DNA of 64,000 nt from an uncultured virus (IMG/VR IMGVR_UViG_3300043811_000078) (IMGVR_UViG_3300043811_000078); one strand, 5' to 3'; shown: positions 13,760 to 41,908, numbered from the stretch's first letter. The notes: generated from the letters alone by a model not told the origin. Made by a program: numbers and translations.

Positions 13760-15540
13760 GCGCCCCGACGCTGCCGAACGGCTTCCGGGCCGCACGGGAC
13801 GACGACTTCCCGGCGACGGGGCAGCAGATCGCCCTCGGCCCGCATGAGGAACTGGCGGAGCTGGTACGGCGGGGACGGATGACGCCGGTGCCGGACGTGC
13901 CGTACACGGGACCGGTGACCGGGGACCAGCTTGACTCGCTCGCGGTACTGGAGGCGCTGGGTGAGACGCAGCGGCTTGACCGCGCGCCCTCGGCGTCCCC
14001 GTTCTTGCAGCACCGGGGCGTGTTCCGGACGGGGATTCACCGGGTCAGCCGGTCCGCGGTCGCGCTGGGACTGATCCTGATCGTTCAGGCGGCGCTGTCG
14101 CTAAGGCTCATCTGGTCGAACACGGCGTTCCCCGACGAGGCGCTGTACCTGTGGGCCGGGCACCTGGAGTGGGCGCACTGGCTGCACGGCGCGCCGCTGC
14201 CCGCCTTCCCGACGTATTTCTCCGGAGCCCCGGTCGTGTATCCGCCGGTCGGCGCGCTAGCCGACTCTCTCGGCGGACTGGCCGGCGCCCGGATCCTGTC
14301 CCTGTGCTTCATGCTGACGGCGACATGTCTCCTGCACTCGCTAACGCGGAGCCTGTTCGGCCGGCGTGCGGCTCTGCTTGCGGCGGGCATGTTCGCGGCA
14401 ACTGCGGCGACGCAGTTCCTCGGAGCGTTCGCCACTTATGACTCGATGGCGCTGACGCTGCTGGCATTCGCCGCATGGCTTGCTGTAAAGGCGGCCGAAC
14501 GCGGTTCCGCCGTCGCGGCCTTCGGGATCGCAGGTAGCTGCGGGGCAGTGCTGGCGGTGGCCGACGCGGCGAAGTATGCGGCAGCCCTCTGGAATCCAGT
14601 GGTGGTCGCACTGGTGATCCTGCTCGCGTGGCGGGCGCGAGGCCTCCGTGCCGGCGTCGCCGCAGGTGCCCTGTGCGCAGCGGTGCTCGCCGCTGCTGTC
14701 GCCGCCGCACTGGAGCTCGCAGGGCATCCCTACTGGCGGGGCATCACATTCACCACCCTGGGCCGCGCTCACGGGTCGTCGTCGGCGGCCGGGATCGCCG
14801 CGGACAGCCTCGGCTGGGTTGGCGTAGCGGGGGTCCTCGCCGCGCTCGGCGCGGTAATCATGACCGTCCGGAGCCGCGACCTGCCGCTGAGGCTGACCAC
14901 GTGGGTGCTGGCTGGCGCCATCATCCTCGCACCTGCGAACCAGGCCCGGATTCACGTGTTCACCAGCTTGTTCAAGCACGTGGGGTTCGGGGCGTGGTTC
15001 GCTGCGGCCGCTGCGGGATACGCGCTCGCGTCGCTGGCCGATGCGGTGCCCGCAGCGAAGCGCCACAGCGCACTCCGGGCTGCTGGAGGGGCGATTGCGG
15101 GGGCCGCGCTGCTGGGTGCTGCGCTGGCCGCGACTCATTTCGGGTCATGGCCGGACAGCGCGCAATTCACGGCGAAGCTGCGGACAGTCCTGGCTGGCGA
15201 GCGGGGGCCGGTGCTGGCGGCCGATAACGGCAACGTGATCGAGTACTACCTGCCCGGCGAGGCCGGGGGCGTTGTCTTCTACGGGCCATGGTTCTTCGAC
15301 TACCGGGATCCGGAGACGGGCAAGCACCTTGTCGACGCTCCCGGGTTCGCGGATGCGGTCCGGCACCGGTACTTCTCCGTCGTCGCACTGTCGTTCTCCG
15401 ACTCGCAGCCCGTTGACGTAGAGATCAGTGCCGACATCCGCGCTTACGGCGGCTACCGGCTGGTGTCGGTGCTCCCGTACCGGGTGGCGGGATGGCAGAG
15501 CGCATTCCGGATCTGGGTCCGGGAAGGGGCCTCAAAGTGA
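13756..15540 (+). CDS. GT-C (PMT/ArnT-like) membrane glycosyltransferase
   Basis: AFPDEALYLWAGH, many TM helices. Confidence 0.8.
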   Translation: MSAPTLPNGFRAARDDDFPATGQQIALGPHEELAELVRRGRMTPVPDVPYTGPVTGDQLDSLAVLEALGETQRLDRAPSASPFLQHRGVFRTGIHRVSRSAVALGLILIVQAALSLRLIWSNTAFPDEALYLWAGHLEWAHWLHGAPLPAFPTYFSGAPVVYPPVGALADSLGGLAGARILSLCFMLTATCLLHSLTRSLFGRRAALLAAGMFAATAATQFLGAFATYDSMALTLLAFAAWLAVKAAERGSAVAAFGIAGSCGAVLAVADAAKYAAALWNPVVVALVILLAWRARGLRAGVAAGALCAAVLAAAVAAALELAGHPYWRGITFTTLGRAHGSSSAAGIAADSLGWVGVAGVLAALGAVIMTVRSRDLPLRLTTWVLAGAIILAPANQARIHVFTSLFKHVGFGAWFAAAAAGYALASLADAVPAAKRHSALRAAGGAIAGAALLGAALAATHFGSWPDSAQFTAKLRTVLAGERGPVLAADNGNVIEYYLPGEAGGVVFYGPWFFDYRDPETGKHLVDAPGFADAVRHRYFSVVALSFSDSQPVDVEISADIRAYGGYRLVSVLPYRVAGWQSAFRIWVREGASK

Positions 15541-17075
15541 CCGCGGCTGCTGCCGGGCGTCACCGGTCAGCCCGGAGCCTGATCCTTCCCTCTGCTCCGG
15601 ACGCCGACGAGAAGACGTCGTACGCGTGGCGCTCGCTTCCGCTGCTGACCGGCGCGATCACCGTCAGCGCCCTGTGCATCATCATCGCCCAGGCGTGGCT
15701 TGAGGCCAAGTACCTGGTTGCGCTGCCGTTCGCCGTCTACACGCTCGCCTACCTCGCCTACCAGTGCCTGTCCGTCCCGGTGAACTTCACCGGGGGCAGC
15801 TTCGACCTCGAAGAGCACGAGCTGCGGGTGATGACCTGGCAGCCGGAGCGCTACCCGGACGTCGACGTGTTCCTGCCGGTGTGCGGGGAGCCGCTCGCGG
15901 TGCTGGCCAACACGTGGGAGGGCGTCGCGGAGATGCGCGATTCCTACCCCGGCGACGTGCGCCCGTACGTCCTCGACGACGCCCACGACGACGGCGTGGC
16001 CGCACTGGCGCGCCGGGTCGGCTTCGGGTACGGACGCCGCTCCGAGCGGATCCACAAGAAGGCGGGGAACATCCGGCACGCGTTCGCCCGGACCCGCGGC
16101 GAGCACATCGTGATCTTCGATGCGGACTTCCGGCCCCGCCCCGATTTCCTCGCCGAGACGCTGCCGTACATGGACGACCCTGCGACCGGGATCGTGCAGA
16201 CCCCCCAGTACTTCCGCGTCGCCAAGGGGCAGACGTGGGTGGAGAAGGCCGCAGCGGCGACGCTGGAGGTCTTCTACCGGTCGGTGCAGCAGTCCCGCGA
16301 CCGGTTCGGGTCGGCGCTGTGCGTCGGGTCCAACGCCGTCTACCGCCGTGCCGCGCTCGAGGCCGTGGGCGGCTGTACTCTCATCCCGTACGCGGAGGAC
16401 TCCCACACCGGGCTCGACGCGAGGCGGGCCGGCTACGCGCTGAAGTACCTGCCCGTCCCGCTGGCGGCCGGGGTGTGCCCGTCCGGCATCGACAAGTTCA
16501 TGGGCCAGCAGTACCGGTGGTGCTGCGGAGCCACGTCCCTGGTGTGGACCAAGCACATGTGGCGGGTGCCGATGCCCTGGAAGTCGCGGCTCCCGTACGT
16601 CGCCGGGTGGATGTGGAACTTCACCACTGCACTGCGCACCGTCATCATCCCGCTGATCCCCGTGGTCCTGCTGGCGTTCCTGCCCGCCGAGATCCAGCTC
16701 CGCAACGCGCTGCTGCTCATACCCGCCGTCATCACCGGCACCGTGCTGTACCCGCTGTGGCACAACACGAAGTGGCCGCTCGGGACATGGCCGCTGGCCA
16801 TCGCCGTCGGCTGGGCGCAGGCCCTCGCCTTGTGGGATTTCGCCCGCGGCAACGTCATGTCGTGGCAGCCGACCCGCGGCCCGAAAGACGCCGCGCGGCG
16901 CTTCCGCAAGTGCCTCGTCGCCTGGAACGGGACGCTGGCCGTCGCGTGGCTCGCCCTCGCCGCCTGGCGCATCGCGCAGACCGGCAGCGACCGGTTCGCC
17001 ATCGTCGCCGCCTTCGGCATCGTCAACGCGGTCATCATCGGCCGCATCGCATTCCCCGGAAAGGACGTCTCGTGA
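15537..17075 (+). CDS. Cellulose-synthase-like GT2
   Basis: VLDD, KAGN, FDADF, QTPQ, AEDS, QQYRW. Confidence 0.9.
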   Translation: MTAAAAGRHRSARSLILPSAPDADEKTSYAWRSLPLLTGAITVSALCIIIAQAWLEAKYLVALPFAVYTLAYLAYQCLSVPVNFTGGSFDLEEHELRVMTWQPERYPDVDVFLPVCGEPLAVLANTWEGVAEMRDSYPGDVRPYVLDDAHDDGVAALARRVGFGYGRRSERIHKKAGNIRHAFARTRGEHIVIFDADFRPRPDFLAETLPYMDDPATGIVQTPQYFRVAKGQTWVEKAAAATLEVFYRSVQQSRDRFGSALCVGSNAVYRRAALEAVGGCTLIPYAEDSHTGLDARRAGYALKYLPVPLAAGVCPSGIDKFMGQQYRWCCGATSLVWTKHMWRVPMPWKSRLPYVAGWMWNFTTALRTVIIPLIPVVLLAFLPAEIQLRNALLLIPAVITGTVLYPLWHNTKWPLGTWPLAIAVGWAQALALWDFARGNVMSWQPTRGPKDAARRFRKCLVAWNGTLAVAWLALAAWRIAQTGSDRFAIVAAFGIVNAVIIGRIAFPGKDVS

Positions 17076-17986
17076 AACTCGCCGCCCTCGCAGGCATCGC
17101 CCTGTCCGCCGCCCTCACAGGCTGCGCGGCGACGGCACCTGTCCCGCCGGCCCCTCGCCCGGTGACGATCCCCGCGATCCCGGATTCCCTCAACGGCGTG
17201 TACGAGCCCGGCGCCCCCGCCTCCTATGCCGGGATCACCCGGTTCGCTGCGGCGACTGGCGCCGCGCCGGAGCTGGCCCTCTACTACTCGGCGTGGTTCG
17301 AGCGGTTCGCCGCGGGGTTCGCCGCGCAGGCGCACGCTCACGGCGCGGTCCCGTTCGTCCAGATCCAGTCCGGCCGCGAGCCGCTGGCGGGGATCACGGC
17401 GGGACGCTTCGACGCCTTCCTGCGGGCCTACGCCCTCTCGGTGAAGGCGTACGGGCATCCGGTGGTCCTCAGCTTCGATCACGAGATGAACGGAGGCTGG
17501 TACCCCTGGGGTGCCGGTCACACCGCTCCCGCCGTATACATCGCGGCATGGCGGCACGTCGTGGGCGTCTTCCGCGCCGTCGGCGCATCAAACGTGACGT
17601 GGATGTGGACTGTCAACTCAACCAACGTGGCCACGGATTCCCTGCGCCAGTGGTGGCCAGGATCCGCCTACGTCGGCTGGGTCGGGATCGACGGCTATTA
17701 CTACTACTCCACCGACACCTTCGCGTCGGTGTTCGGCGCGACCGTCGCGCAGGTACGGAAGTTCACCACCGCCCCGGTCCTGATCGCGGAGACCGCGGTG
17801 GGGACGACGGCTGACCGTGACGCGCAGATCACAGGCCTGTTCGCCGGGGTGAAGGCAGACAAGCTGCTCGGCCTGGTGTGGTTCGACGAGAAGCAGGACA
17901 AGGGCGTCTATCACCAGGACTGGCGGCTGGAAAATGACCCGCCTGCGCTCGCCGCGTACCGGGCTGCGGTCAAGGCGGCACGGTGA
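17072..17986 (+). CDS. GH26-like glycoside hydrolase lipoprotein
   Basis: Lipobox LTGC; FDHEMNGGWYPWG; WWPG..YVGWVGIDGY; IAET. Confidence 0.85.
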   Translation: MKLAALAGIALSAALTGCAATAPVPPAPRPVTIPAIPDSLNGVYEPGAPASYAGITRFAAATGAAPELALYYSAWFERFAAGFAAQAHAHGAVPFVQIQSGREPLAGITAGRFDAFLRAYALSVKAYGHPVVLSFDHEMNGGWYPWGAGHTAPAVYIAAWRHVVGVFRAVGASNVTWMWTVNSTNVATDSLRQWWPGSAYVGWVGIDGYYYYSTDTFASVFGATVAQVRKFTTAPVLIAETAVGTTADRDAQITGLFAGVKADKLLGLVWFDEKQDKGVYHQDWRLENDPPALAAYRAAVKAAR

Positions 17987-18444
17987 CCCATCCCCTCACC
18001 ACGGAGGAATTCGACGCGATCTACGCCCGCGTCCCGCGCCTGACCGTGGAGGTCATCCTCCGCGACCACCGCGGCGTGTTCCTCACCCGCCGCGATTCAG
18101 GGCCGTGCGCCGGCCGCTGGCACATCCCCGGCGGCACCGTCCGCTTCGCCGAACCGCTGCACCAGGCCGTGGAACGCGTCGCGCGGGACAAACTCGGCGT
18201 GACCGTCACAGCCTCCCGCCACGCAGGGTTCATCGAGTACCCGTCCCACTACCTGGAGGGCACCGATACCCCGGTGGGGGCGGCGTTCGAGGCGGACTGG
18301 GACGGGGATCCGGTGCCGGTGGCCGGGGCGCTGGACGCGGGATGGTTCACGGCCGCGCCGGACGGGATGCATGACGAGCAGGCCCGGTTCCTCGGATGGC
18401 ACACACAAGACGACCCGGCCGGGACCCCCGGCCGGGCGACCTAG
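17983..18444 (+). CDS. Nudix hydrolase (GDP-mannose hydrolase-like)
   Basis: VPRLTVEVI...WHIPGGTVRFAEPLHQAVERVARDKLG. Confidence 0.8.
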   Translation: MTHPLTTEEFDAIYARVPRLTVEVILRDHRGVFLTRRDSGPCAGRWHIPGGTVRFAEPLHQAVERVARDKLGVTVTASRHAGFIEYPSHYLEGTDTPVGAAFEADWDGDPVPVAGALDAGWFTAAPDGMHDEQARFLGWHTQDDPAGTPGRAT

Positions 18445-18473
18445 CACGACCACGACACAAAGGAACTAGCCCC

Positions 18474-19346
18474 TTGAGAACAGCAAGGATCCTGGCGGCA
18501 GCATCAGCCGTCGCCCTCACGGCCGGACTGGCGCTCGCGCCCGCAGCGGCATCAGCAAGCCCGGCAGCGGTGCCGTCAGCCAGCCCCCGGGTGACGGTCA
18601 GCGGCCCGCTGAGGGCCGCCCCGGCAGCGGAACTGCCCCGCACCCACCTGCCCGCAGTGAAGCCCCAGCGGTCCAGCACCTACTACAGCTCGAACTGGTC
18701 AGGCTGGGTGGCCGCCGCCCGCTCAGGCAAGACGATCACGTCGGCCAGCGTGAACTACACCATCCCGTCGCTCGACAGCGGGAAGTGCACGCCGGGCACG
18801 TCCGGCTACGCATACAACTCCGACTGGGTAGGCCTCGACGGGTTCAGTGACGGGACCGTCGAGCAGACAGGCACCGCGGACTACTGCTACGCAGGCGGCG
18901 GCACCGGCCTCTACGCCTGGTACGAGATGTACCCGCTGAACCCGGTCGCCTACTCCGGGGTGCGCCCCGGCGACGCCATCGACGTGTCGGTGACCTACAG
19001 CACGTCCACCAGGCTGTATCACCTGGTGCTGAAGGACGTGACGATCGATGGCGAGATCTCGGTGTACGAGGGCTGCCCGTCCGGGTCGGTGTGCCATGAC
19101 TCGTCGGCTGAGGTGGTCGACGAGGCCCCCGGCGGCGGTCCCGGCGGCGGCTACAACCTCGCCGACTTCGGCCAGACCGGCTTCACCGCCGCGACCGTCG
19201 CAGGCTCCGGGATCTCCGGGACGCTCGCGTCGTCGGCGGACTGGACCGCCGACGATGTGGTCATGGAGTACGACCACATCATGGACGTCCCGACCGGCCT
19301 CGAAGGCGGCCAGGCGTTCGACTCCGACTGGGAAGCCCCGTATTAA
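18474..19346 (+). CDS. Secreted G1-family glutamic peptidase
   Basis: Signal peptide; SSNWSGW, WVGLDG, EQTGT, AWYEMYP, SAEVVDE. Confidence 0.88.
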   Translation: MRTARILAAASAVALTAGLALAPAAASASPAAVPSASPRVTVSGPLRAAPAAELPRTHLPAVKPQRSSTYYSSNWSGWVAAARSGKTITSASVNYTIPSLDSGKCTPGTSGYAYNSDWVGLDGFSDGTVEQTGTADYCYAGGGTGLYAWYEMYPLNPVAYSGVRPGDAIDVSVTYSTSTRLYHLVLKDVTIDGEISVYEGCPSGSVCHDSSAEVVDEAPGGGPGGGYNLADFGQTGFTAATVAGSGISGTLASSADWTADDVVMEYDHIMDVPTGLEGGQAFDSDWEAPY

Positions 19347-19355
19347 CCCCTGAAC

Positions 19356-19393
19356 GCGGCTGCGGGTACCGCCTTCCCGGTGCCCGCAGCCGC
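19356..19393. terminator. GC-rich hairpin after the peptidase gene
   Basis: GCGGCTGCGGGTACCG / CGGTGCCCGCAGCCGC. Confidence 0.6.
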
Positions 19394-19435
19394 CCTATTG
19401 CAAGCGCACGGAGATGTGCAGAGAGGGGGGAAGCG

Positions 19436-19711
19436 ATGGTCAGCGTGCTGGCGATCATCCTCGTGAGCGGAATACAGGTCGCGCTCGGCGTCATCGTCGG
19501 CTGGGTCCTGGGGCAACGGACCCGGCAGCTTCCCGCGCTGGAGCAGCCCCGGCCTGTATGCGGCTGCACCCACCATTACTCGATGCACGACCCGAAGACG
19601 GGCGAGTGTCAGGTAGCGGTTGGGGATGGCGAGTGCGCTTGCGTCCGCTATACGGGTCCGGTCCCGCTGACCGAGTACTACGCCCCTGATATCACCGGGA
19701 GCGGGCAGTGA
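19436..19711 (+). CDS. Small membrane-anchored Cys/His protein
   Basis: TM helix then CGCTHHYSMHD...CAC..Y. Confidence 0.6.
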   Translation: MVSVLAIILVSGIQVALGVIVGWVLGQRTRQLPALEQPRPVCGCTHHYSMHDPKTGECQVAVGDGECACVRYTGPVPLTEYYAPDITGSGQ

Positions 19712-20156
19712 ACGGGCTGCTCGTCGGCGGCGCCGCCTTTTGCATTGCCGGCGGCCTGGGTGCGCTGGCGGTGAATATCGTCGCGTGGGTGCGCGGCCTC
19801 AGCGACCTTGAGTACTGGTCCTCGGGCATCCTGGCCGTGACGAGCTGGATCCTGGTCCCCGCCTGCCTGCTGTCGGGGGACTGGGTTGCCGCTGCCGAGA
19901 ACGCCGTGCTGTCGGTGATATGGCCGCTGGACTGGTGGCGACAGCGGAGGTCCCGCTCATGATGGCCGTCGCCGCCCTGGGCTGCTGCATCATCCATGCG
20001 GCACTCAACGGTCATGACCCCGTGCTGGCGGGGGCCTTCGCCGTGCTGGCCTACCTGGCGGGCGCCGTCCTGACCCTGGCCTCCGTGGCCGGCGGCAACT
20101 GGCCCGGCGTCCTCCTCGGTGCCATGTTCTGCGGCTACTGGACGCTGGCCTGGTGA
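19708..20156 (+). CDS. Two small hydrophobic membrane proteins (19708..19962 and 19959..20156)
   Basis: Overlapping start/stop codons; hydrophobic sequences. Confidence 0.5.
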
Positions 20157-20556
20157 TCCGCGAATGATGCGTCCCGGCTGACGTAACAGCCGGCGAGAGA
20201 ACACCTGATGAGGACAGGAGAGAAGAACGTGGACATCGTAGACCGCAGGACGATGGAAGGACGGAAGGTGGACGGCAGCGAGGCAATAGCCAGGGTCAAG
20301 GCGCTCAGCGAGACCGACAGGGCCTACTTGCTGTACTGGCTGGCCAGCAAGCACCCGGCGACGGTGGACTCGGGCATATCCAGTCTGGAGTTGCACGACA
20401 TGATCGCCAAGGAGGCGGCCGGGGAGTGAACCCGGCCGCGTTGCCTGCGGCCGGGAGCACGCGATCCAGGGCATCACGCACGATGCCCGTTTTAACCCCG
20501 CATCACAGTACACGTCCCGTCACGGAGACGAGGACACAGGAGAGAGGGTAACGGAA

Positions 20557-20766
20557 ATGAGCACAGCCATAGCCGATTACGAGGCACTGCTGACCCCCGC
20601 CGAGGTCGCGACGATGTTCCGCGTCGACCCGAAGACCGTGACACGGTGGGCGAAGGCAGGCAAGCTCACATCAATCCGAACGCTGGGCGGGCACCGGCGC
20701 TACCGTGAGACCGAGGTCCGGGCGCTGCTAGCCGGGATCCCCGTGCGCCTGGCGCAAGCGTCCTGA
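20557..20766 (+). CDS. bldC: BldC-family MerR-like regulator
   Basis: LLTPAEVATMFRVDPKTVTRWAKAGKLTSIRTLGGHRRYRETEVRALL, the BldC signature. Confidence 0.92.
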   Translation: MSTAIADYEALLTPAEVATMFRVDPKTVTRWAKAGKLTSIRTLGGHRRYRETEVRALLAGIPVRLAQAS

Positions 20767-21082
20767 CTGCCCGGTGCTGTCGTAAGCGGCACCGCAAGAC
20801 GTGACCGTGCGGGACCGCGGACCCCCCCTCCGCGCTCCCGCACGGCACGCGAAGCCCCGCCCCCTGTCACCGGCCCCCAGCTGACCTGCCCGGCCAGTTG
20901 CCGGCAGGCCGCGAAGCGGGACAACGGAGACGGGGGGCGGGGCGACCGGAAAACAATGCAACGGGGAACTGGACGTTAAATAACTCAAGGCAAACCCGGT
21001 ATTAGCAGCCGGGTTTACTTTGCATACCCGGAAATGCATAACACCAGCTCACAGTACGATTCCGGTTAATTGCCGGATGCGT

Positions 21083-21139
21083 TTGACATGGCTGTACGCG
21101 ACCGGTAGCTTTCCGTTCCGCGAGAGAAAAGAAAGGAGG
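21083..21139 (+). promoter_or_regulatory. Housekeeping-type promoter and RBS of the CRISPR effector
   Basis: TTGACA (21083)-N17-TAGCTT (21106); AAAGGAGG at 21132. Confidence 0.8.
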
Positions 21140-21148
21140 CGACCATCA

Positions 21149-23785
21149 GTGCCCACGGAAATCAGGATGATCCAGCAGGCGTATAAATTCGCACTGGACC
21201 CGACACCCGCGCAGGCCCGGATGTTCGCCTCTTTCGCGGGCGCGAAGCGCGCATCGTTCAACTTCGCCCACGCCATGATCATGGCGGGGGCCGACGCCTG
21301 CAAAGCCAGGAAGGACGAGCTCGTTCTCCGGTACCTGTCCGAGGGGCTGAGCGAATCCGAGGCGGCACGCAAAGCCAAAGCCGAGGCCGAGGCCGCGATC
21401 CCGGTTCCCCGGCAGATGAAAATCCCGGACCCCGCAGACCCCAGGAAGATCAGGGTTCTCCACAGAGGGGTCGGCGTCGAATGGACCGAGTTCACGCGCA
21501 CCGCCGTGGGCTGCACGACCTGCCGGCGCCTCCTCGCCCGCGACCCCGGATCAAGCGCCCCGTGGGCCGACGCCCGCACCGGCAGCGTTACCTGCGACCC
21601 TGACGTGCTGAAACGCCTCGGCATCGAGGGGGAACCTGGACCGCACGACCCCACCGGCGTCGGCTGCAAACGCTGCTGGAACCCCCTGCACCAGGCCCCG
21701 GACGGCACCTGGGCAGACAAGAACGGCTCGGGCGCCTGCCCCGAGGCCCGCGAGGCCGGCGCACCCCACGAGCCGCGCAGCGACTTCATGGCCTGGACGA
21801 AGGACGTGTTCTCCGGCACGATACAGGCCGCCCACCGCGACGCCGACGTTGCATGGCAGCGGTTCCTGCACGGGAAATCCCGCCGCCCCCGGTTCAAGAA
21901 GAAAGGCAAGTGCACCGAGTCGTTCCAGGTGCACGGCGACGACCTGGGCATCCCGGAGACGACGGAGGCGGAAAGGATAAGGATCCCGGAGGCGGTGGCC
22001 GCCCTCAGGCCGCACGGGAAACGCCCGGTGCAGCAGCAGACCGCGCAGCACATCACGCTCCCGAAAATCGGCCCGGTCCGGGTCATGTCCGACGACAGCC
22101 TGCACCCGGCGATGCGGCGCAGCCGCCGCAGGGGCTCCGGCGTGACGCCCGCGCGCCGGCCGGGACGCAAGCTCAAAGCGGCCCGGGCGCGCCTCGAAGC
22201 GGCCGGGCGCGCTTACGAGCATGCAGCCGAGACCATGCCGGAGATCCCCGCGTCCACCCTGCATGAGGTCAGCGCCGCCCGGGATGCTGCCGCCAGGGCA
22301 GAACAGGCCGTCGCGTACGCCAGGCAGCGCGACGCCGGGCACGGCCGCCACATGGGAAACCGCCGGCGCTTCCGTCAGCTGCACCGGCACATGCGCAAGA
22401 GCAGCGAGAAAGCCGCCCGGCTCGGCCCGCTGCTGCGGCAGGTCCGCGAAGACGCCGGCTGGACCCTCGATCAGGCCGTGGCCCTCCTCGGTGCCGAGGC
22501 TGACGCCCGTGCGGTCGCCGCCGTGCGGGTACGTCTCGCCGCCGCCGAGGATGCCGTAGCCATCGCGGCTGCTGCTGCCGCTGAAGCCGTGGCCGCAGGA
22601 GACGCCGAGGGCGCTGCGGCGGCGGAGAAAGACCAGAGGAACGCGCGGAACCGCGTCAAGGGCGCACTGAAGAGGCTGGGGGACCTGGCTGCCGCGAAGC
22701 CGGGGGAGAAAGCGTCCCGCACCGACCGGTGGAGTGCCGCCAAGCTGAAGAAGCTGGAAGCTACCGGGGTCACGCTGGGCCTGGACCAAGCCAGCGTCAT
22801 CTGCTCCGCCTACCAGCTTGCCGGCCCTCTCCGCGAGCAGGTGACGGACCTCGCCGCGCAGGCCAGGATCGTCCGCGCCACCATCACCCTCGGCGCCGAC
22901 GGCCTGTGGTGGTGCTCAGCCGGCGCCGAGGTCCCGTATGCCGTGCGCACCGCGCCGTCGAAGCGCCAGGAAGCGCGGGGAACTGCCGGGATCGACTTCG
23001 GCACCGCGCGGATCATGACGGTGACCGGCCGGCGCCCTGCCGGTGCCCCCGGCTACTACGAGAAGGAACTGGCAGCGCTCAGTGCCGCCCAGCGGCACGC
23101 CGCCCGCGCTGTCCCCGGCTCGGGGCGGCACCGCAAGGCGACGGCGAAAGCCGGGCTCATCCACGCCGACGTGGCCAGGCTCCGTGCCGACACCCTGCAC
23201 CGGGCCACGACGAGCCTGAGCCGGAACTTCTCCGCGCTCAGCTTCGAGGGCTTCAACGTGCAGCAGCTGATGCGGGACGGCTCCCGGGGGCTGCCCCGCC
23301 AGGCGCGCGGGCGCCGGAACCGGTCGCTCGCGGACACGGGCATCGGCATGGCCCGTGACATGCTCCGGAACAAGGGTCCGAGGTGGGGTGCGACAGTGGT
23401 CGCGCTCGGCCCGGACGTCATCACGATCACAGGACCCCGGCCGGAGGACGCGAGAGAAGCGGACCTCCCGCCGGGTGCGAAGCCGAACGGCACATGCGCC
23501 GGGTGCGGGCAGGCGAGAACCAAGCCAGCCCGCCCTCATGAGGCGCTGTACCGGTGTGACGCGTGCGGTCGCGTCAGGCTGCGCACCCTCAACAGCGCTG
23601 AGAACATCCGCCGGTGGGCGGATGAGGCGCTTACCGCAGATCCCGGCTGCGCAACCAGCGGGCCGGATCAGTCTCGTGGAGGAGATGAACCCGCGACAGT
23701 AGGTGCGGGACGATCTCCGGTGAAGCGAGCAGCCATAACCTCATCGCGGCCGCGCCGCGGTGAGGCTGGCACCCCTGGCGGGTAA
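21149..23785 (+). CDS. 878-aa TnpB-derived, CRISPR-adjacent type V-like effector; RuvC probably inactive
   Basis: OrfB N-terminus AYKFALDPTPAQ; PRFKKK; ITLPKIG; RuvC-I GIDFG (D616); RuvC-II SFEG (E700); CAGC..CDAC Zn finger; RuvC-III LRTLNSAENI. Confidence 0.9.
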   Translation: MPTEIRMIQQAYKFALDPTPAQARMFASFAGAKRASFNFAHAMIMAGADACKARKDELVLRYLSEGLSESEAARKAKAEAEAAIPVPRQMKIPDPADPRKIRVLHRGVGVEWTEFTRTAVGCTTCRRLLARDPGSSAPWADARTGSVTCDPDVLKRLGIEGEPGPHDPTGVGCKRCWNPLHQAPDGTWADKNGSGACPEAREAGAPHEPRSDFMAWTKDVFSGTIQAAHRDADVAWQRFLHGKSRRPRFKKKGKCTESFQVHGDDLGIPETTEAERIRIPEAVAALRPHGKRPVQQQTAQHITLPKIGPVRVMSDDSLHPAMRRSRRRGSGVTPARRPGRKLKAARARLEAAGRAYEHAAETMPEIPASTLHEVSAARDAAARAEQAVAYARQRDAGHGRHMGNRRRFRQLHRHMRKSSEKAARLGPLLRQVREDAGWTLDQAVALLGAEADARAVAAVRVRLAAAEDAVAIAAAAAAEAVAAGDAEGAAAAEKDQRNARNRVKGALKRLGDLAAAKPGEKASRTDRWSAAKLKKLEATGVTLGLDQASVICSAYQLAGPLREQVTDLAAQARIVRATITLGADGLWWCSAGAEVPYAVRTAPSKRQEARGTAGIDFGTARIMTVTGRRPAGAPGYYEKELAALSAAQRHAARAVPGSGRHRKATAKAGLIHADVARLRADTLHRATTSLSRNFSALSFEGFNVQQLMRDGSRGLPRQARGRRNRSLADTGIGMARDMLRNKGPRWGATVVALGPDVITITGPRPEDAREADLPPGAKPNGTCAGCGQARTKPARPHEALYRCDACGRVRLRTLNSAENIRRWADEALTADPGCATSGPDQSRGGDEPATVGAGRSPVKRAAITSSRPRRGEAGTPGG

Positions 23786-23820
23786 CTGCCAGGCGTCCCA
23801 TGCACTGCCCATGGCGGGCA
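23673..23820 (+). ncRNA. Omega-RNA/tracr-like structured RNA overlapping the effector 3' end
   Basis: CTCG-TGGA-GGAGAT..ATCTCC-GGTGAAG-CGAG nested stems, a 12-bp hairpin, and CCTGGCGG-GTAA-CTGCCAGG. Confidence 0.6.
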
Positions 23821-23871
23821 CGCCTAACTCAATAGCGGATATTGCGCGCACAAACTTGCTGGCCGCGAAGA

Positions 23872-25604
23872 GTGCGGCCCACGGGCGCTGGGGCGACGGG
23901 TCACCGGCCTGATCTCGCGGAAGGCCCGTGAGGTGCGGCCCACGGGCGCTGGGGCGACGGGACCACGCCGAGTTCGTGCCCGCTACCCGGGATGTGCGGC
24001 CCACGGGCGCTGGGGCGACGGGCTCTCCGCGGACAACCAGGTGATCTACACAACGTGCGGCCCACGGGCGCTGGGGCGACGGTTGGCAGAAAATCTCCGA
24101 TGATTACCGTCTCTGGTGCGGCCCACGGGCGCTGGGGCGACGGTTGGCCTGTCCGGCTCTTGGATGCCGGTCGCTTGTGCGGCCCACGGGCGCTGGGGCG
24201 ACGGGGACACCGGTCCCCGCCGCGCCGGTGCGCATCAGTGCGGCCCACGGGCGCTGGGGCGACGGATTGACCTCACATGGACAACGTGGACGGACAAAGT
24301 GCGGCCCACGGGCGCTGGGGCGACGGGACTCCGCCGAGCCGCCGGGCCGAGCTGGAGATGTGCGGCCCACGGGCGCTGGGGCGACGGCTGGAATTGCCTA
24401 GAGATATGCCAAGTCTCTACGTGCGGCCCACGGGCGCTGGGGCGACGGTCCACTACCGGTCAATCTCCCGAGTCCGGGAATAGTGCGGCCCACGGGCGCT
24501 GGGGCGACGGTTTACCACGACATGCTGACGAGCGGTGGCCGGAGTGCGGCCCACGGGCGCTGGGGCGACGGTCCCTTTGCCCGCTGTGCACGGGCCGTGG
24601 GCAGGTGCGGCCCACGGGCGCTGGGGCGACGGGTAGTCCCTGTTACTTGGGCGTAATATCCGGACGTGCGGCCCACGGGCGCTGGGGCGACGGGCATGAT
24701 CAGTAAGCAGTCCCCTCGCGATCGAGTGTGCGGCCCACGGGCGCTGGGGCGACGGCTTGACCCGAAGTTCTGGTTGCTTGACCTCAGTGTGCGGCCCACG
24801 GGCGCTGGGGCGACGGTTGCTGAGCTGAGCGTTCGGCGCCCTCGAAAGGGTGCGGCCCACGGGCGCTGGGGCGACGGGACACCGCTCATATCCTGCGCCA
24901 TCGAGATGGCGTGCGGCCCACGGGCGCTGGGGCGACGGGAATGAACATTGCTACTCTTTGCTCAGAATGTGGTGCGGCCCACGGGCGCTGGGGCGACGGT
25001 ATGTCGGCCCGTCGGTTGGCTAGGGACGGGAGGTGCGGCCCACGGGCGCTGGGGCGACGGTGAACCTGACTCAGATGGTGATGGAGGCCGAAGGTGCGGC
25101 CCACGGGCGCTGGGGCGACGGGCCAAGGCGCAGCCCCCACCATGAGCGGTTGGTGTGCGGCCCACGGGCGCTGGGGCGACGGACCGGCGTGCCGCGTTCG
25201 CGATCGAGGCTTCGTGTGCGGCCCACGGGCGCTGGGGCGACGGTCTGAGAACTCGGGACTGGCAACAGCGTGCTGTGTGCGGCCCACGGGCGCTGGGGCG
25301 ACGGGAGGTCGGCCCGCTACATCGTCCGTGACGCCAGGTGCGGCCCACGGGCGCTGGGGCGACGGGCCACCGGGCACCGGGGTGAAACGCACGCCGGAGT
25401 GCGGCCCACAGGCGCTGGGGCGACGGGATGACGCTGCCGGGCACGGCCAGCAGCGCGATGTGCGGCCCACGGGCGCTGGGGCGACGGTTTGATATTTTGC
25501 TGGGTGTTAGTGCCTTCGTCGTGCCGGCCTGCGGGCGCGGGGACGGCGGTACAAGGTGGGTAATCGAGGCAAGGAGCCACGCGTGCGGCCCGCAGGGGCG
25601 ACGG
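23872..25604 (+). CRISPR. Type I-E-like CRISPR array: 27 intact repeats (one with a SNP) plus 2 degenerate distal repeats; 28 spacers
   Basis: GTGCGGCCCACGGGCGCTGGGGCGACGG at 61-nt period; spacers 33 nt (two of 34 nt); degenerate copies at 25521 and 25583, possible remnant at 25641. Confidence 0.99.
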
Positions 25605-25758
25605 TCTGGTCAGCAAGGGGCGCCTGTCCGGCATTAGCAGGCGCGGCCCGCAGATCCGGGTCTGGCCGACCCGGAATCTGGCGCGCGGGATGACGGCCGA
25701 GTTGCAGGAGGGTCCAGGGGGCGGCGGGTTCCTTGACTGGCAGAGGGGAGCGCGACAA

Positions 25759-26694
25759 ATGAAAGGCGCATTACCGGCCAAAGCGACGGAACTCAGCCGC
25801 ATCAGCGACCGGCTCAGCTTCCTGCACGTTGAGCATGCAAGGATCGACCGCGACCTGAACGCAGTCACCATCTGGCAAGCCGAAGGGGTCGCGAGCATCC
25901 CCGCTGCTGTGCTCGCGGCGCTTCTCCTCGGCCCCGGCGTGACGATCACCCACGCCGCCATCTCGCTCCTGGCCGGCAGCGGGTGCACCGTCGCGTGGGT
26001 GGGCGAGGAAGGCGTCCGCCTCTACGCCGGCACCACGGCAGCAGCGGCATCGTCGGTGCTGCTGCAACGGCAGGCCGCGCTCGTCACCGGGCAGAAAACC
26101 CGCATCGCCGTCGCCCGGCAGATGTACGCGATGCGGTTCCCCGGCGAGGATGTCTCCCGGCTGAGCATGCAGCAACTGCGCGGCCGGGAAGGCGCCCGGG
26201 TCCGCGCCTGCTACCGGCTGCACGCAGAGAAAACCGGCACCGCATGGCGCGGCCGGAGATACGACCCGAAGGACTGGAGCGCGGGTGACCCGGTGAACAG
26301 GTGCCTGTCGGCCGCGAACTCCGCCCTCTACGGCATCACCCACGCCGCGATCCTGCACCTCGGGTGCAGTCCAGGGCTCGGATTCGTCCACACCGGGCAC
26401 CAGCTGTCCTTCGTGTACGACATCGCGGACCTGTACAAGGCGGAGGTCACGATCCCGGCGGCGTTCGGGATCGCCGCGGAAGGCGGCCGGGATCTCGGGG
26501 CTAAGACCAGGCGCGCGGTGCGGGACGCGATCGTCTCAGCGCGGCTGCTGCCCCGCATCGCCGATGACATCCGGGGACTGCTCGGCGCCCCCGGAGATGA
26601 CGGCGAGACAGTCGCGGGGATCGCGGTGCCGGACCTGATCGACGACCACGGCACTGTGCCGGGCGGCGTCAGCTACGGGGAGGACGGGCCGTGA
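25759..26694 (+). CDS. cas1: Type I-E Cas1
   Basis: DRLSFLHVEH, LLLGPGVTITH, WVGEEGVRLYA, QLRGREGARVR, SPGLGFVHTG, FVYDIADLYK. Confidence 0.97.
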   Translation: MKGALPAKATELSRISDRLSFLHVEHARIDRDLNAVTIWQAEGVASIPAAVLAALLLGPGVTITHAAISLLAGSGCTVAWVGEEGVRLYAGTTAAAASSVLLQRQAALVTGQKTRIAVARQMYAMRFPGEDVSRLSMQQLRGREGARVRACYRLHAEKTGTAWRGRRYDPKDWSAGDPVNRCLSAANSALYGITHAAILHLGCSPGLGFVHTGHQLSFVYDIADLYKAEVTIPAAFGIAAEGGRDLGAKTRRAVRDAIVSARLLPRIADDIRGLLGAPGDDGETVAGIAVPDLIDDHGTVPGGVSYGEDGP

Positions 26695-26984
26695 TCGTCC
26701 TTGTCCTCACTTCGGTGCCGCCGGGGCTGCGCGGCGACCTGTCCCGGTGGCTCCTGGAGATCGCCCCGGGCGTGTTCACCGGGAAAGTATCGCGGCGTGT
26801 CCGGGAGCACCTGTGGCGCCGGGTCCGGTTCGGCGTCCTGCAAGGAGGGTCGGCGGTCATGGTGGTCACTGACCGGGGCAGGGAGCAAGGCTGCGAGATC
26901 CTGACGGCCGGGGCGGGACGGTGGACGGCGGCGGACTTCGAGGGGCTGACGCTGATGGTCAGGCCGCGTCCGGGAACACGGTGA
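26691..26984 (+). CDS. cas2: Type I-E Cas2
   Basis: VPPGLRGDLSRWLLEIAPGVFTGKVSRRVREHLW...DFEGLTLM. Confidence 0.96.
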   Translation: MIVLVLTSVPPGLRGDLSRWLLEIAPGVFTGKVSRRVREHLWRRVRFGVLQGGSAVMVVTDRGREQGCEILTAGAGRWTAADFEGLTLMVRPRPGTR

Positions 26985-27036
26985 GCCCCCCGCGCGGGGG
27001 CGTCCGGAAGACAGCAACGAAAGGAGGAAGGGACCC

Positions 27037-27745: not shown

Positions 27746-27803
27746 TTGTATCCGCCCATCTGCGCACGCCAGCGGCGTTTAAGACCGCAGGTCATCTCTC
27801 AGG

Positions 27804-27875
27804 CCCGGTGCTCTGCCTATTGAGCTACAGCGCCACGTGGAGGCGCCGGAAGGGCTCGAACCCTCAACCTCCGGA
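27804..27875 (-). ncRNA. Circularly permuted tRNA-like (YrlA-like) module 2
   Basis: TCCGG, T arm GAGGG-TTCGAGC-CCTTC, looped acceptor CGGCGCC/GGCGCTG, D arm TAGCTCAATAGGCAGAGC, CCGGG. Confidence 0.75.
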
Positions 27876-27952
27876 AGCGTTGCCTGCGGTCGGTCGATCT
27901 GGCGTTAAGCGGCAATGCTGAGCCTGGAGCGAGAATCTGAGCCTGGCGGTTG

Positions 27953-28025
27953 CCGGATGCCTCTACCGGGTGGGCTACCGGCCATCGAGTTGGCCGGGGA
28001 GGAGTCGAACCTCCGCTTGGTCCGG
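27953..28025 (-). ncRNA. Circularly permuted tRNA-like (YrlA-like) module 1
   Basis: CCGGA, T arm GGAGG-TTCGACT-CCTCC, looped acceptor CCGGCCA/TGGCCGG, D-like arm with GGTA, TCCGG. Confidence 0.75.
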
Positions 28026-28078
28026 GCGTACCTGATTCAGGTGTGATCTTCAGTTTCAGCTTGCGCTCGCGGAGAAGT

Positions 28079-28813
28079 CTACGCGGCGAACAGCCAGGAG
28101 AAGACAGCCTCGCCGGCCTTCTGATCGGCGACCTCGACGCCGTTGGCCTCCTCGCGGGCGAACTTCACCGCATGCTGGAGCGCCGTGACGCGGCCCAGCA
28201 GCGTCCGGACCCGCGACGCGGGGAGGGCGCCGGAGAACTTAACTGTCGTCCAGTCACCCTCGGGCACGTCCTCCATGTACACCTGCACCTGCGCCGGGTG
28301 TTCCTTGGTCGCCTCGGCGAGAGTGTGGTTGCGGGGGATCTTCTTGCCGCGCACCGTCTTGACGGGAGGCGTCGCGTAGCAGCCCCGCGCCGAGTCGAAC
28401 GCCCACTCTTCCGAGGGGTCGAGCACGGGGAGCTTGGCGACGAAGGTGTGCAGGTCGGTGAGCTGCTTCTCCAGGAACAGCAGGTAGGTGACCGGCACGT
28501 CGCGCAGGATCGTCTCCCCTTCGACGGTGACGTCGGCGCGGGCCGCCGTGTTGGCGTGGTCCTTCGTCAACGTGATGTCGAACAGCCGCGTCATCGCCGC
28601 CGCGGCTTCCGCCAGCACGTCCGGCGCGGTGGCCTGGACCCTCGTGGATTCTGCGGGGAGCTGGTCGCCGTCGTCGGCGCGCGGCTGGTAGGTGCGCGAG
28701 ATGCCGGACAGTAGCTGGGGTTTCTGCACGTCCCGGTGCAGGTCGGTGATGCGCCGGGAGGCGTCGGACTTGACGCCCTTCTCGACGGCGATGATCTGGC
28801 TGAGTCTCGTCAT
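28079..28813 (-). CDS. Conserved-looking hypothetical protein directly upstream of the tRNA-like RNAs
   Basis: MTRLSQIIAVEKGVKS...VPVTYLLFLEKQL...AVKFAREEAN; strong codon bias. Confidence 0.85.
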   Translation of the reverse strand: MTRLSQIIAVEKGVKSDASRRITDLHRDVQKPQLLSGISRTYQPRADDGDQLPAESTRVQATAPDVLAEAAAAMTRLFDITLTKDHANTAARADVTVEGETILRDVPVTYLLFLEKQLTDLHTFVAKLPVLDPSEEWAFDSARGCYATPPVKTVRGKKIPRNHTLAEATKEHPAQVQVYMEDVPEGDWTTVKFSGALPASRVRTLLGRVTALQHAVKFAREEANGVEVADQKAGEAVFSWLFAA

Positions 28814-30398: not shown

Positions 30399-30814
30399 CC
30401 CGCAAGACGGACGAAGGCAAGCGGGCGCAAGCCCGGCAGCTCTACGCGACGACGCTGACCACGCGGGCCATCGCCGCCCGGCTCGGCGTCGACCCGCGTA
30501 CAGTGCAGCGGTGGCTCGGCGACGCGACGCGCCCGCGCGGTCCGCGCAAGCGCCCCGATGTGCCCGACAGCAAGATCGTCGAGCTGCGCGAGCGGGAGGG
30601 CCTGTCGTTCGCCGCGATAGCTGCCCTCACCGGCATGTCGGCGACGGGCGCACGGAACCGGTACTGGGCGATCACCGGCAGGCCGCGAGCCGAGCGGAAG
30701 CCGGGGGACCAGGACGCGCCGCCGCACGCGAACGGCGCGGCTCACACCCCGAGCAGCACAGGCCAGGTCGCCGGCCCGACCACCCCGTCGGCGACGATCC
30801 CGGCGCCCGACTGA
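30395..30814 (+). CDS. Tandem HTH DNA-binding protein
   Basis: TTRAIAARLGVDPRTVQRWL; GLSFAAIAALTGMSATGARNRY. Confidence 0.75.
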   Translation: MTRKTDEGKRAQARQLYATTLTTRAIAARLGVDPRTVQRWLGDATRPRGPRKRPDVPDSKIVELREREGLSFAAIAALTGMSATGARNRYWAITGRPRAERKPGDQDAPPHANGAAHTPSSTGQVAGPTTPSATIPAPD

Positions 30815-31593
30815 ACGTTCCTGACCGCCATCTGGGTCACAGGCCCGAAATCCCCGTCGACGGCGATCAGGTGCCCTCGCGAGACGCAGAGCCCCTGTAC
30901 GGTCCGCACAGCGGCGGCGTCGGCACTTCCGGCTGTGACCTCGGGTAGCTGCTGCATCATGGCCTCCTGCCAGTCAGGTACGGGACGCGGGCCGGCCGGC
31001 GCGGGCTTCCCCGCACGCCCCGCGATCCACGCGTCAAGCTCCGCCCTCGTCCCGTTGAACGCGTCGTGGTCGAGGTTCCCCGGTGAACCCCACTGCCAGA
31101 AACGCCAGGTGCCCCACGGTGCGACCAGCGCCGGGGCGGTAGCTGACGGCCACGCCACCCACAGGTCATAGCCGGTGCACGAGGTCAGCGCCTTCGCCAC
31201 GGTCAGGTCCGAGTAGACCAGCACCGGGGAAGCCGGGGCGGCAGCATGGACAGAATCGCAGAACGCTTTGACTTCGCTGTCCGTCACGCCCTGGTAGTCC
31301 GAGACAACGACCGCCAGCATGTCGCCAGCCTCCAGGCCCTCCGCGATCACGGTCGCCAGGAAGTACCGGGCCTGGACCAGCCCGGACGCCGCAGCCGGGG
31401 ACACCAGCTCGTGGTAGGCACCTCTGCGGATGCCCGCCGCCTTCACCGCCGCCCAGTTCCGGGCGAAGTTCGCGTCCGCGAGCTGGTCGCCGTTCGTGGC
31501 CTTGCAGAACGCGAAGTCGAGCCCTTCCAGGGCGGCCGGGGTCAGCGGAGGCTGATAGGCCGAGACATCGATCCCCTGCGCGCTAGCAGTCAT
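30742..31593 (-). CDS. Endolysin (GH25 muramidase plus peptidoglycan-binding domain)
   Basis: GIDVSAYQ, FAFCKAT, RGAYH, WRFWQW; VDGDFGPVT...ADGVVGPATW. Confidence 0.92.
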   Translation of the reverse strand: MTASAQGIDVSAYQPPLTPAALEGLDFAFCKATNGDQLADANFARNWAAVKAAGIRRGAYHELVSPAAASGLVQARYFLATVIAEGLEAGDMLAVVVSDYQGVTDSEVKAFCDSVHAAAPASPVLVYSDLTVAKALTSCTGYDLWVAWPSATAPALVAPWGTWRFWQWGSPGNLDHDAFNGTRAELDAWIAGRAGKPAPAGPRPVPDWQEAMMQQLPEVTAGSADAAAVRTVQGLCVSRGHLIAVDGDFGPVTQMAVRNVQSGAGIVADGVVGPATWPVLLGV

Positions 31594-38586: not shown

Positions 38587-38991
38587 ATGGACATGGCAGC
38601 GGTGATCGCGTTCGCCGAGGCCCGGCTAGCCGAGGACGAGGCGCCAGCGAAGGCAGCACAGCTTCGCTTCCCCGGCCCGTGGGAACAGGCAGAGAACACG
38701 AACTCGCCGCTGCTGTCAGCGGTGACCCTCTACGACTCCCGCGATGAGTCGGTCGGCGTGATCAGGGGCAGCTACGCCGCCGCCCACATCGCCCGACACG
38801 ACCCGGCGCGCACCCTCCGCGAGATCGAGGCTAAGCGGCGCATCCTGGAGCGGCATCGCGGATGCGGAGACGGCTTCGGCTATTGCGCTGACGGCGGCCA
38901 CGACCGGGACGACGGCGGGTGCGCCGAGCTGGCCGACGCACTATCCGCCTGGAGCGACCACCCGGACTACCCGCAGGAGCTGAAGCCGTGA
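38587..38991 (+). CDS. DUF6221-like protein
   Basis: FAEARLAEDE...HIARHDPARTLREIEAKRRIL...DHPDY. Confidence 0.8.
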   Translation: MDMAAVIAFAEARLAEDEAPAKAAQLRFPGPWEQAENTNSPLLSAVTLYDSRDESVGVIRGSYAAAHIARHDPARTLREIEAKRRILERHRGCGDGFGYCADGGHDRDDGGCAELADALSAWSDHPDYPQELKP

Positions 38992-41878: not shown

Positions 41879-41908
41879 CGGACCCCCGTTTCAGGCAGAG
41901 TGGTGGAC

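Follow-up and report, generated by a model that had tools for sequence, protein, structure and literature searches.

A candidate self-contained type V CRISPR-Cas module with type I-E adaptation genes on a temperate actinophage-like contig

The uncultured virus contig IMGVR_UViG_3300043811_000078, the whole 64,000-nucleotide (nt) stretch of which is here called the window and supplies all coordinates, carries at 21152-26984 a gene for a large TnpB-like effector followed in order by an 86-nt gap, a CRISPR array, cas1e and cas2e, all on the + strand. The explanation of this unit that we think probable overall is a self-contained type V CRISPR-Cas system, borne as an accessory module by a temperate actinophage, and that a working type V system is here served by type I-E adaptation strikes us as quite probable. 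Given such a system, we lean slightly towards interference that does not cleave its target. The parts of the unit are as follows.

21152..23785, + strand: type V effector, 877 amino acids (aa), probably of a Cas12n-sister clade; it retains D615 and E699, has T812 in place of the RuvC-III Asp, and ends in a C-terminal tail predicted to be disordered
23673..23871, + strand: putative trans-activating CRISPR RNA (tracrRNA), a scaffold apparently derived from an omega-RNA, from an eight-locus alignment, RNAalifold covariation and Rfam RF03015
23786..23871, + strand: gap or leader of 86 nt, its last ~14 nt a degenerate form of the actinobacterial type I-E leader-repeat junction motif
23872..25604, + strand: CRISPR array, 27 intact 28-nt repeats and two degenerate ones at the cas1-proximal end, with 28 spacers of 33-34 nt
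25759..26694, + strand: cas1e, 361 bits with TIGR03638; the longest open reading frame (ORF) runs from 25690
26691..26984, + strand: cas2e, 100.6 bits with PF09707, 64.4 bits with TIGR01873 and 113.3 bits with PADLOC Cas2e

An earlier note on this DNA had described the 86-nt gap, the 28-spacer array, cas1 and cas2 on the + strand, and all of these are present. Its assignment of the effector to the TnpB family also stands, and the length it gave (878 aa) does not: the ORF spans 21020 or 21152 to 23785, and because a database protein is 100% identical over 877 aa, we place the start at the GTG at 21152. The promoter with which the note had the unit begin was not recovered, a sigma-70 scan of the window returning 0 sites. 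It had further held that a TnpB-derived effector lies here beside a type I-E array and cas1e-cas2e with neither Cascade nor Cas3, and without TnpA, and the profile scans bear this out: no Cascade subunit, Cas3 or Y1 TnpA was found among the 65 window ORFs searched with Pfam or the 69 searched with PADLOC, so that a complete type I-E system is not present among them, and no PF01797 match or recombinase adjoins the effector gene in the window. A Cascade operon elsewhere in the same phage, which the note had named as a possible refutation, was likewise not found in G001, a near-identical IMG/VR record of 68.8 kb, where six-frame searches returned no Cas7e (PF09344), cas3 core (TIGR01587) or Cse1 (PF09481); these searches were not fully sensitive, as both Pfam controls matched only in Thermus.

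That the unit contains a single effector with a TnpB-like RuvC domain is indicated by profiles and by structural and fold matches to TnpB and Cas12f/m. Pfam recognizes HTH_OrfB_IS605 (30.7 bits) and OrfB_IS605 (PF01385, 47.9 bits), and the NCBIfam model guided_TnpB (NF040570) matches at 103 bits against a cut-off of 100. The best PADLOC model is Cas12u4 (V-U4/Cas12n; 166.8 bits, E 2e-49), with a Cas12f-labelled model a close second (163.7 bits). For the family profile the best solved relative is RdCas12n of Rothia dentocariosa (PDB 9j09; E 3.9e-38, 134.6 bits, in three stretches including the N-terminus), followed by ISDra2 TnpB (E 5e-29); by sequence, Cas12n (type V-N, formerly V-U4/c2c9) is the known system closest in both profile and solved structure. 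An AlphaFold model of the effector is poor (predicted local distance difference test, pLDDT, 65; predicted template modelling score, pTM, 0.33; pLDDT <50 at residues 834-877), and Foldseek searches with it gave only TnpB, Fanzor and Cas12f/m matches (TM ≤0.37), which confirms the TnpB/Cas12 fold. The family ranges in size from 506 aa (locus L005; relatives of the window locus carry such L numbers here) to the 877 aa of the window, and tblastn segments describe the window effector as an L005-type core with insertions at about residues 56-189 (~134 aa, cysteine-rich) and 334-570 (~237 aa, long helices). When the two insertions were searched separately with Pfam, the one match was to HTH_31, at a sub-threshold 17 bits.

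Effector relatives are rare in databases and come almost entirely from soil metagenomes. A word-indexed search among 5.8 billion proteins returned 19 of them (609-920 aa), nearly all unnamed metagenome proteins; none came from a single-protein viral scan or from the first genome-contig profile search with the family alignment, and an exhaustive profile search found a continuum from the effector family (seven representatives above 950 bits) to ordinary TnpBs. The comparison with TnpB and Cas12 proteins that the earlier note had proposed was made with FastTree on 153 rows, comprising 13 of the first 19 relatives, six proteins from the window and its related loci, and representatives no shorter than 350 aa; it excludes near-duplicates and fragments, and RdCas12n itself is not in the tree. 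In it the window effector falls, with support 98, in a 41-row clade, the rows being clusters at no more than 50% identity. The sister of this clade is a 4-row group, and adjoining both is a 37-row clade of proteins mostly 480-570 aa long, which includes the Prauserella rugosa protein of L047. As that protein matches RdCas12n (9j09) at 261 bits and TnpB at 100 bits, we take the 37-row clade to be Cas12n proper. The window effector is not within it, its 41-row clade being separate, and the lineage is best described, from these sequence comparisons, as sister to Cas12n and altered in its RuvC-III motif. The new type V-like lineage proposed in the earlier note is partly supported, and does not represent a fresh capture of a TnpB. 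We found no description in the literature of the 41-row clade or of a Cas12n-type effector with cis cas1e-cas2e, and the clade may already carry a V-U number in the 2025 classification or in the V-U6 to V-U45 tables.

An RNA is predicted where the effector gene gives way to the array. Nucleotide conservation extends from ~110 nt inside the effector ORF across the gap, and the conserved C-terminal peptide (RGGDVRP...SPVKRAA...GTPGG) is therefore largely a shadow of RNA constraint. The scaffold starts ~113 nt before the end of the ORF, takes in the entire gap, and comprises a hairpin with the stop codon in its loop (23774-23793), the anti-repeat CGTCCCA immediately after it (23794-23800), a second hairpin (23806-23820) and the conserved CCTAACTCAATAGCGG (23823-23838). 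In an alignment of eight loci (263 nt, ending with repeat 1) RNAalifold proposed a consensus of 64 pairs. Within it 92% of cells pair, against 37-43% with the partners slid, a percentage that is inflated because the consensus structure came from the same eight sequences, and compensatory change is seen in 25 pairs against 4-10 with slid partners; 0 of 500 shuffles attained the observed values. The anti-repeat pairs with TGGGGCG of the repeat in a helix that is 97.9% paired and shows compensatory changes at two of its seven pairs, the co-changes across loci being T..A, G..C and A..T at one end and C-G versus T-A inside. Covariation was used here because a duplex-energy scan for the anti-repeat proved uninformative in DNA of 70% G+C and was discarded. 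At the same site the Rfam model Transposase-2 (RF03015) matches three relatives at 60.4, 47.8 and 44.7 bits (cut-off 42.7) and a fourth at 41.4, and the window's own 227 nt form the same helices with a fold z-score of -4.15. In Cas12n, as described in PMC12216341, the tracrRNA region overlaps the ORF at its 3' end and the C-terminal tail is disordered; a structured, covarying RNA across the stop codon and a predicted disordered tail were both found here, and the scaffold is considered a putative, omega-RNA-derived tracrRNA. Scans for CCTAACTCAATAGCGG as a leader motif gave mostly chance matches, the real ones being in L047, L157 (on the same contig as L005) and L187. As a separate observation, the 16-nt motif also occurs a few bases 5' of the tmRNA gene, right after smpB, in a Streptomyces sp. 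(L032, ~5700-5800), which could be chance, hundreds of chance matches being expected, or a shared promoter-like element.

The other half of the unit is of type I-E, as the earlier note had concluded from its 28+33 geometry and its Cas1/Cas2. The 27 repeats of 28 nt (GTGCGGCCCACGGGCGCTGGGGCGACGG), 26 of them identical, occupy 23872-25487 with a period of 61 nt, and since the decayed repeats (25521-25549 and 25583-25604) are on the cas1 side, the leader is assigned to the effector-proximal end and the array to the + strand. Both adaptation proteins exceed their curated thresholds, Cas1e with 361.1 bits against a TIGR03638 cut-off of 215.6 (423.8 bits with PADLOC Cas1e) and Cas2e against a TIGR01873 cut-off of 33.15. 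The best solved relatives of Cas1 are type I-E proteins (321 bits; Escherichia coli Cas1, 225 bits), and because relatives are ~310 aa long, 25759 is a likelier start than 25690. The window Cas1e falls in a large clade of uncultured origin (62-99% identity), type I-E Cas1e of Nocardia and Amycolatopsis being 55-60% identical. For comparison, seven canonical cas1e loci were taken from six of 121 genomes of the same class, and in five of the seven the motif AGGTCAGC(A/G)AG stands before the first repeat, ~20 nt past the cas2 stop; the other two, on the opposite strand, have the related forms CTGGTCAAAAA and CAGGTCGGTAAG. The leader of the effector family ends with this junction motif (L010, GCAGGTCAGGAAGC; L005, ACAGGTCAAGAAGT), and so does that of the Prauserella Cas12n-like locus, in which CCTAACTCAATAGCGG is followed by GCAGGTCAGGAAGT and then by a textbook actinobacterial type I-E repeat, GTGCTCCCCGCACGAGCGGGGGTGATCC. 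No Cas1e was found in the Prauserella genome, an empty answer that does not show absence. As the same leader motif and a type I-E array accompany the Prauserella effector, the link to such arrays predates the window lineage, and with the junction motif shared with canonical type I-E loci, arrays of Cas12n and of the 41-row clade alike have an I-E integration junction fused behind an omega-RNA-derived scaffold. The note's notion of a new pairing between an IS605 TnpB and a class 1 module gives way accordingly, the nearest family being Cas12n, already linked to type I-E.

Adjacency of effector and array is conserved, as expected of a type V system. Of the 10 contigs that continue past the effector (the window, L006, L005, L008, L010, L011, L013, L014, L015 and L187, seven lineages at 37-100% identity), all 10 have an array that begins ~90-100 nt after the effector stop; six more contigs break off before that stop or less than 100 nt from it. 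Arrays also turn over, since L010 and L011, with effector and leader 99.2-99.7% identical, have no spacer in common among their three and six. Three more IMG/VR contigs (L222-L224) start inside an array and continue into cas1e-cas2e and then into phage lysis, tail or integration genes; the effector side lies past the contig end, no Cascade genes were found on them, their Cas1 proteins are 72%, 68% and 54% identical to that of the window, and two of them have exactly the repeat of L187. P0012, a further homologue of the effector (43% identity), and P0041, a Cas1e (75% identity), are each on a contig of 143,761 bp, probably the same one. The window locus itself is seen independently in L006, a 6.5-kb metagenome contig colinear with window 17555-24042 at 99.5% identity, and contigs of two soil runs span window 19500-23899. 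G001 differs from the window only in lacking 20219-24846, and with it a helix-turn-helix (HTH) gene, the effector, the leader and the first 16 spacers; at the joint (G001:C1 ~48615-48620) the upstream sequence ...GAGGACAGG runs straight into repeat 17. Either a deletion in nature or a variant of the assembly would account for this joint, no contig matching it being among the matches listed in four soil runs, and as G001 lacks the effector and 16 spacers, the module appears to be accessory and able to be lost. At least 58% of sampled window words occur in five runs, all 2022 soil metagenomes from five coded studies, which may represent one campaign and include the source; no RNA runs containing window words were among the matches listed.

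Two side observations concern relatives of this unit. In L014 (2308-3967) an ordinary and unrelated IS200/IS605 pair, a Y1 TnpA with a 396-aa TnpB, lies directly 3' of the array, and the near-identical L015 is without it. On L015, a contig of 83.5 kb, an Aca2-like HTH gene, a Cas6e-like gene and a type IV Csf1 (Cas8) gene (117.5 bits) are found at 17997-21209, ~7.5 kb 3' of the array, which places that effector-array unit beside a type IV system.

The spacers offer a view of the protospacer adjacent motif (PAM). Contigs of the four soil runs were aligned to the locus, and a contig that matches one spacer and then continues into unrelated sequence was called a loose end. All five of the loose ends lying before a spacer among the matches listed (spacers 5, 6, 15, 20 and 26) finish in AA, that of spacer 26 having a mismatch at spacer base 1, and the flanks beyond the array spacers differ from one loose end to another. 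Because this DNA is 60-70% G+C, AA at five of five flanks is very unlikely by chance. The type I-E PAM of E. coli is AAG. For Cas12n a PAM of 5'-AAN has been reported (PMC12216341), and the AA flank thus appears to fit both an I-E choice of the AAG type and the Cas12n PAM. Spacer G+C averages 61% against 70% for the window, with 8 of 28 spacers below 55% against 3.9% of window 33-mers, a difference which hints at foreign origin. The array as a whole gave only chance matches (E ≥0.1) in phage and plasmid collections and nothing above 52 bits in 401 genomes of one class (that of the genome G002); exact IMG/VR scans with parts of spacers 1, 9 and 5 returned 0 matches, and no spacer matches the window itself with seven or fewer mismatches. 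A 23-nt core of spacer 6 (24205-24237) is identical in at least nine of the searched genomes, inside a conserved coding region. That gene was rejected as the target on account of 7-8 mismatches over 33 nt and the lack of an AA flank; a mobile homologue of it may instead be what spacer 6 targets. A match of spacer 2 in the 401 genomes was likewise rejected (10 mismatches).

Whether the effector would cut what it recognizes turns on the RuvC site. The RuvC-I Asp (D615) and RuvC-II Glu (E699) are present in 41 of 41 clade rows. At RuvC-III, D484 of RdCas12n (the second Asp of DRDxNAA) aligns with T812 of the window effector, a position that holds Arg in 37 of the 41 rows, Thr in the other four, and Asp in 92 rows outside the clade. 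The intact D-E-D triad is accordingly absent from the window effector and from its clade; in 98% of the clade Gly has taken the place of the Asp that follows the RuvC-II Glu in ordinary TnpBs (D700), a number of Arg residues are clade-specific, and no compensating clade-wide acidic residue was found among the 41 rows. D803, which is not kept outside the core family, sits within the second zinc knuckle. This RuvC-III pattern argues for a loss or change of DNA cleavage, and because both the RuvC-III Asp and the acidic neighbour are lost across the clade, binding or silencing of DNA seems likelier than cutting. Precedent exists in Cas12c and Cas12m, type V effectors which act without DNA cleavage according to PMC12669027 and PMC10691335.

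The mechanism we propose would begin with pairing of the scaffold's anti-repeat with the 3' part of each repeat, so that each repeat-spacer unit would yield a CRISPR RNA (crRNA). Cas1e-Cas2e would insert AA-flanked protospacers at the effector-proximal end of the array, the effector would recognize the same 5'-AA PAM, as Cas12n does, and it would block its targets by RNA-guided binding, not cutting, as Cas12m and Cas12c do; the phage would employ the system against competing mobile elements. What the data themselves show is gene content, family placement, RNA covariation, the junction motif, the AA flank and, in relatives, spacer turnover; both the binding without cleavage and the biological targets are what we infer. 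A serious alternative is the same system with an effector that is an active nuclease with a rearranged RuvC, which would either cut DNA or only process pre-crRNA through the remaining Asp and Glu. Residues invariant in every clade row would be unusual for a dead site, nearby acidic residues vary in position (D at -4 or E at -1 from the conserved Asn in many rows, E817 in the window's subclade), and a survey of TnpB and Cas12 proteins (PMC10691335) notes that conserved RuvC-III substitutions can keep some activity. The metal ligand, however, has been replaced mostly by Arg, neither acidic nor His, D700 has gone to Gly beside the Glu, nothing acidic compensates for these across the clade, and the non-cleaving Cas12c and Cas12m (PMC12669027) show the opposite outcome; we judge an active nuclease rather unlikely, if well worth keeping in mind. 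Our fullest proposal, offered tentatively, is that the 41-cluster clade (designated 'RR-NTA') is a distinct type V subtype, a Cas12n-like nuclease turned into a non-cutting, programmable DNA binder (RuvC-III Asp to Arg/Thr, acidic neighbour lost), which temperate actinophages have coupled to their own Cas1e-Cas2e as an AA-matched silencing system kept in the lysogen and updated against rivals.

Two further explanations dispense with a type V system altogether. Under one, the phage carries the array and cas1e-cas2e as a type I-E satellite whose crRNAs supply a host Cascade-Cas3, and the TnpB-like gene is merely adjacent. The repeats, spacer length, junction motif, Cas1e and Cas2e are indeed all of type I-E, L222-L224 show an array with cas1e and cas2e and no visible effector (these contigs beginning inside the array), and G001 retains the remainder of the array and cas1-cas2 without one. 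We nevertheless hold it to be highly unlikely, as the effector keeps its array in all 10 contigs with sequence past it, including lineages without cas1-cas2, the repeat covaries with an anti-repeat that lies in the scaffold linked to the effector, the canonical I-E repeat stem is degraded in the window repeat, and the array lies 5' of cas1 with its leader on the effector side, whereas in the seven canonical loci it follows cas2. Under the other, the locus no longer functions and is in decay, its TnpB domesticated or dead and its array an orphan, a view to which the G001 deletion variant, the cas1/cas2 fragments of L005, the missing RuvC-III Asp and the lack of spacer targets in databases would all conform. 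Set against decay are intact effector, cas1e and cas2e ORFs with curated-threshold matches, 26 of 27 repeats identical, strong signals of purifying selection in protein and RNA, consistently flanked protospacers from the same soil metagenomes, and spacer turnover between near-identical relatives, and the explanation is in our estimation very improbable.

Several points nonetheless weigh against a self-contained, working system that silences by binding, and they should be considered together. The AA flank is read from the 30-letter consensus ends of five contigs, out of a set that also holds 111 further loose ends, and no spacer target was found in phage, plasmid or viral collections or in the 401 genomes. 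RF03015 scores 23.8 bits in the window, below its cut-off of 42.7, the window's junction motif is degenerate (GCTGGCCGCGAAGA, ~4 mismatches to the family consensus), and expression as well as the ends of the tracrRNA and crRNA are predictions. The note's proposed check of homologues for linkage to both array and adaptation genes came out positive for the array and not for cis cas1e-cas2e: among the five contigs with at least 1 kb past the array, the genes are full in one (the window), a remnant in one (the 154-kb IMG/VR contig of L005, with cas1 residues 24-112 and cas2 residues 44-92) and absent from three (L014, L015 and L187). Cis cas1e-cas2e is an uncommon part of the module, and the module may be dispensable and decaying in some genomes. 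With respect to cleavage, the loss of one catalytic residue does not prove the loss of activity, the invariant D615 and E699 could form a rearranged active site, and the effector model (pLDDT 65, pTM 0.33) is too poor for active-site geometry.

The carrier, from its gene content, is a temperate actinophage-like contig, in agreement with the earlier note. A tyrosine integrase (9990-11468), a Xis-like gene and an HTH_31 gene are present, as are genes for a GH25 endolysin (30742-31593) and a tape-measure protein (45653-49417), together with tail tube, minor tail and Dit-like genes. Along its entire length the 497-aa protein encoded at 59376-60869 shares 36% identity with the major capsid proteins of Arthrobacter phages Mufasa8 and Sonali, and for a minor tail protein there are matches to 21 Streptomyces phage records at ~26% identity. 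Two further features border the CRISPR unit.

20557..20766, + strand: ORF for a BldC/excisionase-like HTH protein of 69 aa (PADLOC small-HTH 'mad1', E 2.3e-13), a possible regulator
26972..26995, + strand: G+C-rich palindrome GAGCCCCCCGCGCGGGGGCGTCC spanning the cas2 stop codon, read directly from the sequence

The HTH protein has a counterpart upstream of the effector in L008 and L019 (88-93% identity), and relatives of its gene lie just 3' of the array in L187. A 28-nt direct repeat (20493-20520 and 21039-21066; 71% alike, TAAC.C....TCACAGTAC...) is found ~40-110 nt 5' of the HTH gene and of the effector gene and may be a shared operator or promoter. The palindrome could be either a terminator-like hairpin or a lone repeat-like remnant. 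Elsewhere in the window, 1297-2655 encodes a 452-aa DNA methyltransferase-like protein (PADLOC DrmMI / type IIG methyltransferase region, E 1e-17 to 6e-19), likely a phage anti-restriction methylase, and PMT_2-like and family 2 glycosyltransferase genes at 13666-17075, between the integrase region and the CRISPR module, may be lysogenic-conversion genes altering the cell envelope. A match to the Rfam Y RNA-like YrlA family (27779-27892, - strand) reaches 36.9 bits against a cut-off of 69, with a tRNA-like sequence near 27960-28030 and an adjoining DUF7873 gene (28079-28813, E 2e-109); in L005 a TROVE (Ro60-like) gene follows the cas1/2 remnants. The YrlA-like/DUF7873 region may be a phage Ro/Y-RNA module. 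Two DUF6221 genes (38587-38991 and 41900-42391) lie on the opposite strand inside the tail gene block.

Comparison with known systems places the window between several of them. It shares with Cas12n an actinobacterial setting, a putative ORF-overlapping tracrRNA region, a predicted disordered tail, an array directly 3' and, as far as the five AA flanks indicate, perhaps an A-rich 5' PAM, and differs in effector length (877 aa against 400-700 aa; PMC12216341), in the Thr or Arg at RuvC-III, in cis cas1e-cas2e and in being phage-borne. The Cas12m (V-M) and Cas12c (V-C) systems show that type V interference can proceed by binding or by blocking transcription; Cas12m is among the weak sequence and fold matches of the effector, and is distant (E 1.7e-5) with a different RNA architecture. 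Actinobacterial type I-E systems have in common with the window their Cas1e/Cas2e, 28-29-nt repeat, 32-33-nt spacer, junction motif and AA(G)-type flank; the window lacks their Cascade, Cas6e and Cas3, its array precedes cas1, and its repeat hairpin is degraded. From TnpB of IS200/IS605-IS607 elements (ISDra2, PDB 8h1j), with which the effector shares the RuvC/TNB core, HTH_OrfB_IS605 and a structured RNA overlapping the 3' end (Transposase-2), it is set apart by the absence of TnpA, by a guide from a CRISPR array and by more than twice the size. The closest biology (bioRxiv 10.64898/2026.04.20.719267) is that of Cas12r-CRISPR of Thermus Lalka phages, a compact phage type V system with I-E-like repeat and spacer lengths and a PAM overlapping AAG. 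Its new spacers are added beside the effector gene, reliance on host I-E adaptation is proposed, and its targets are competing integrative elements; it is described there as needing no tracrRNA, requiring RuvC for immunity and having no adaptation genes. The window phage, unlike it, carries its own cas1e-cas2e, a scaffold RNA and an altered RuvC-III, and the likeness, drawn from descriptions, is one of biology.

The union of a class 2 effector with an adaptation module is an event known in kind, since PMC10691335 infers at least 12 independent Cas12-adaptation links, and six branches with altered RuvC-III. In the window a virus unites an effector of class 2 with adaptation genes of class 1 in one operon-like unit, and the RNA, leader and PAM evidence shows how the two fit each other. 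The findings suggest that the A-rich PAM of Cas12n reflects long co-evolution with type I-E spacer acquisition, for which the junction motif provides a concrete, testable sequence. Were the effector naturally non-cutting, the module would represent a self-adapting silencing system from a compact lineage and of phage origin.

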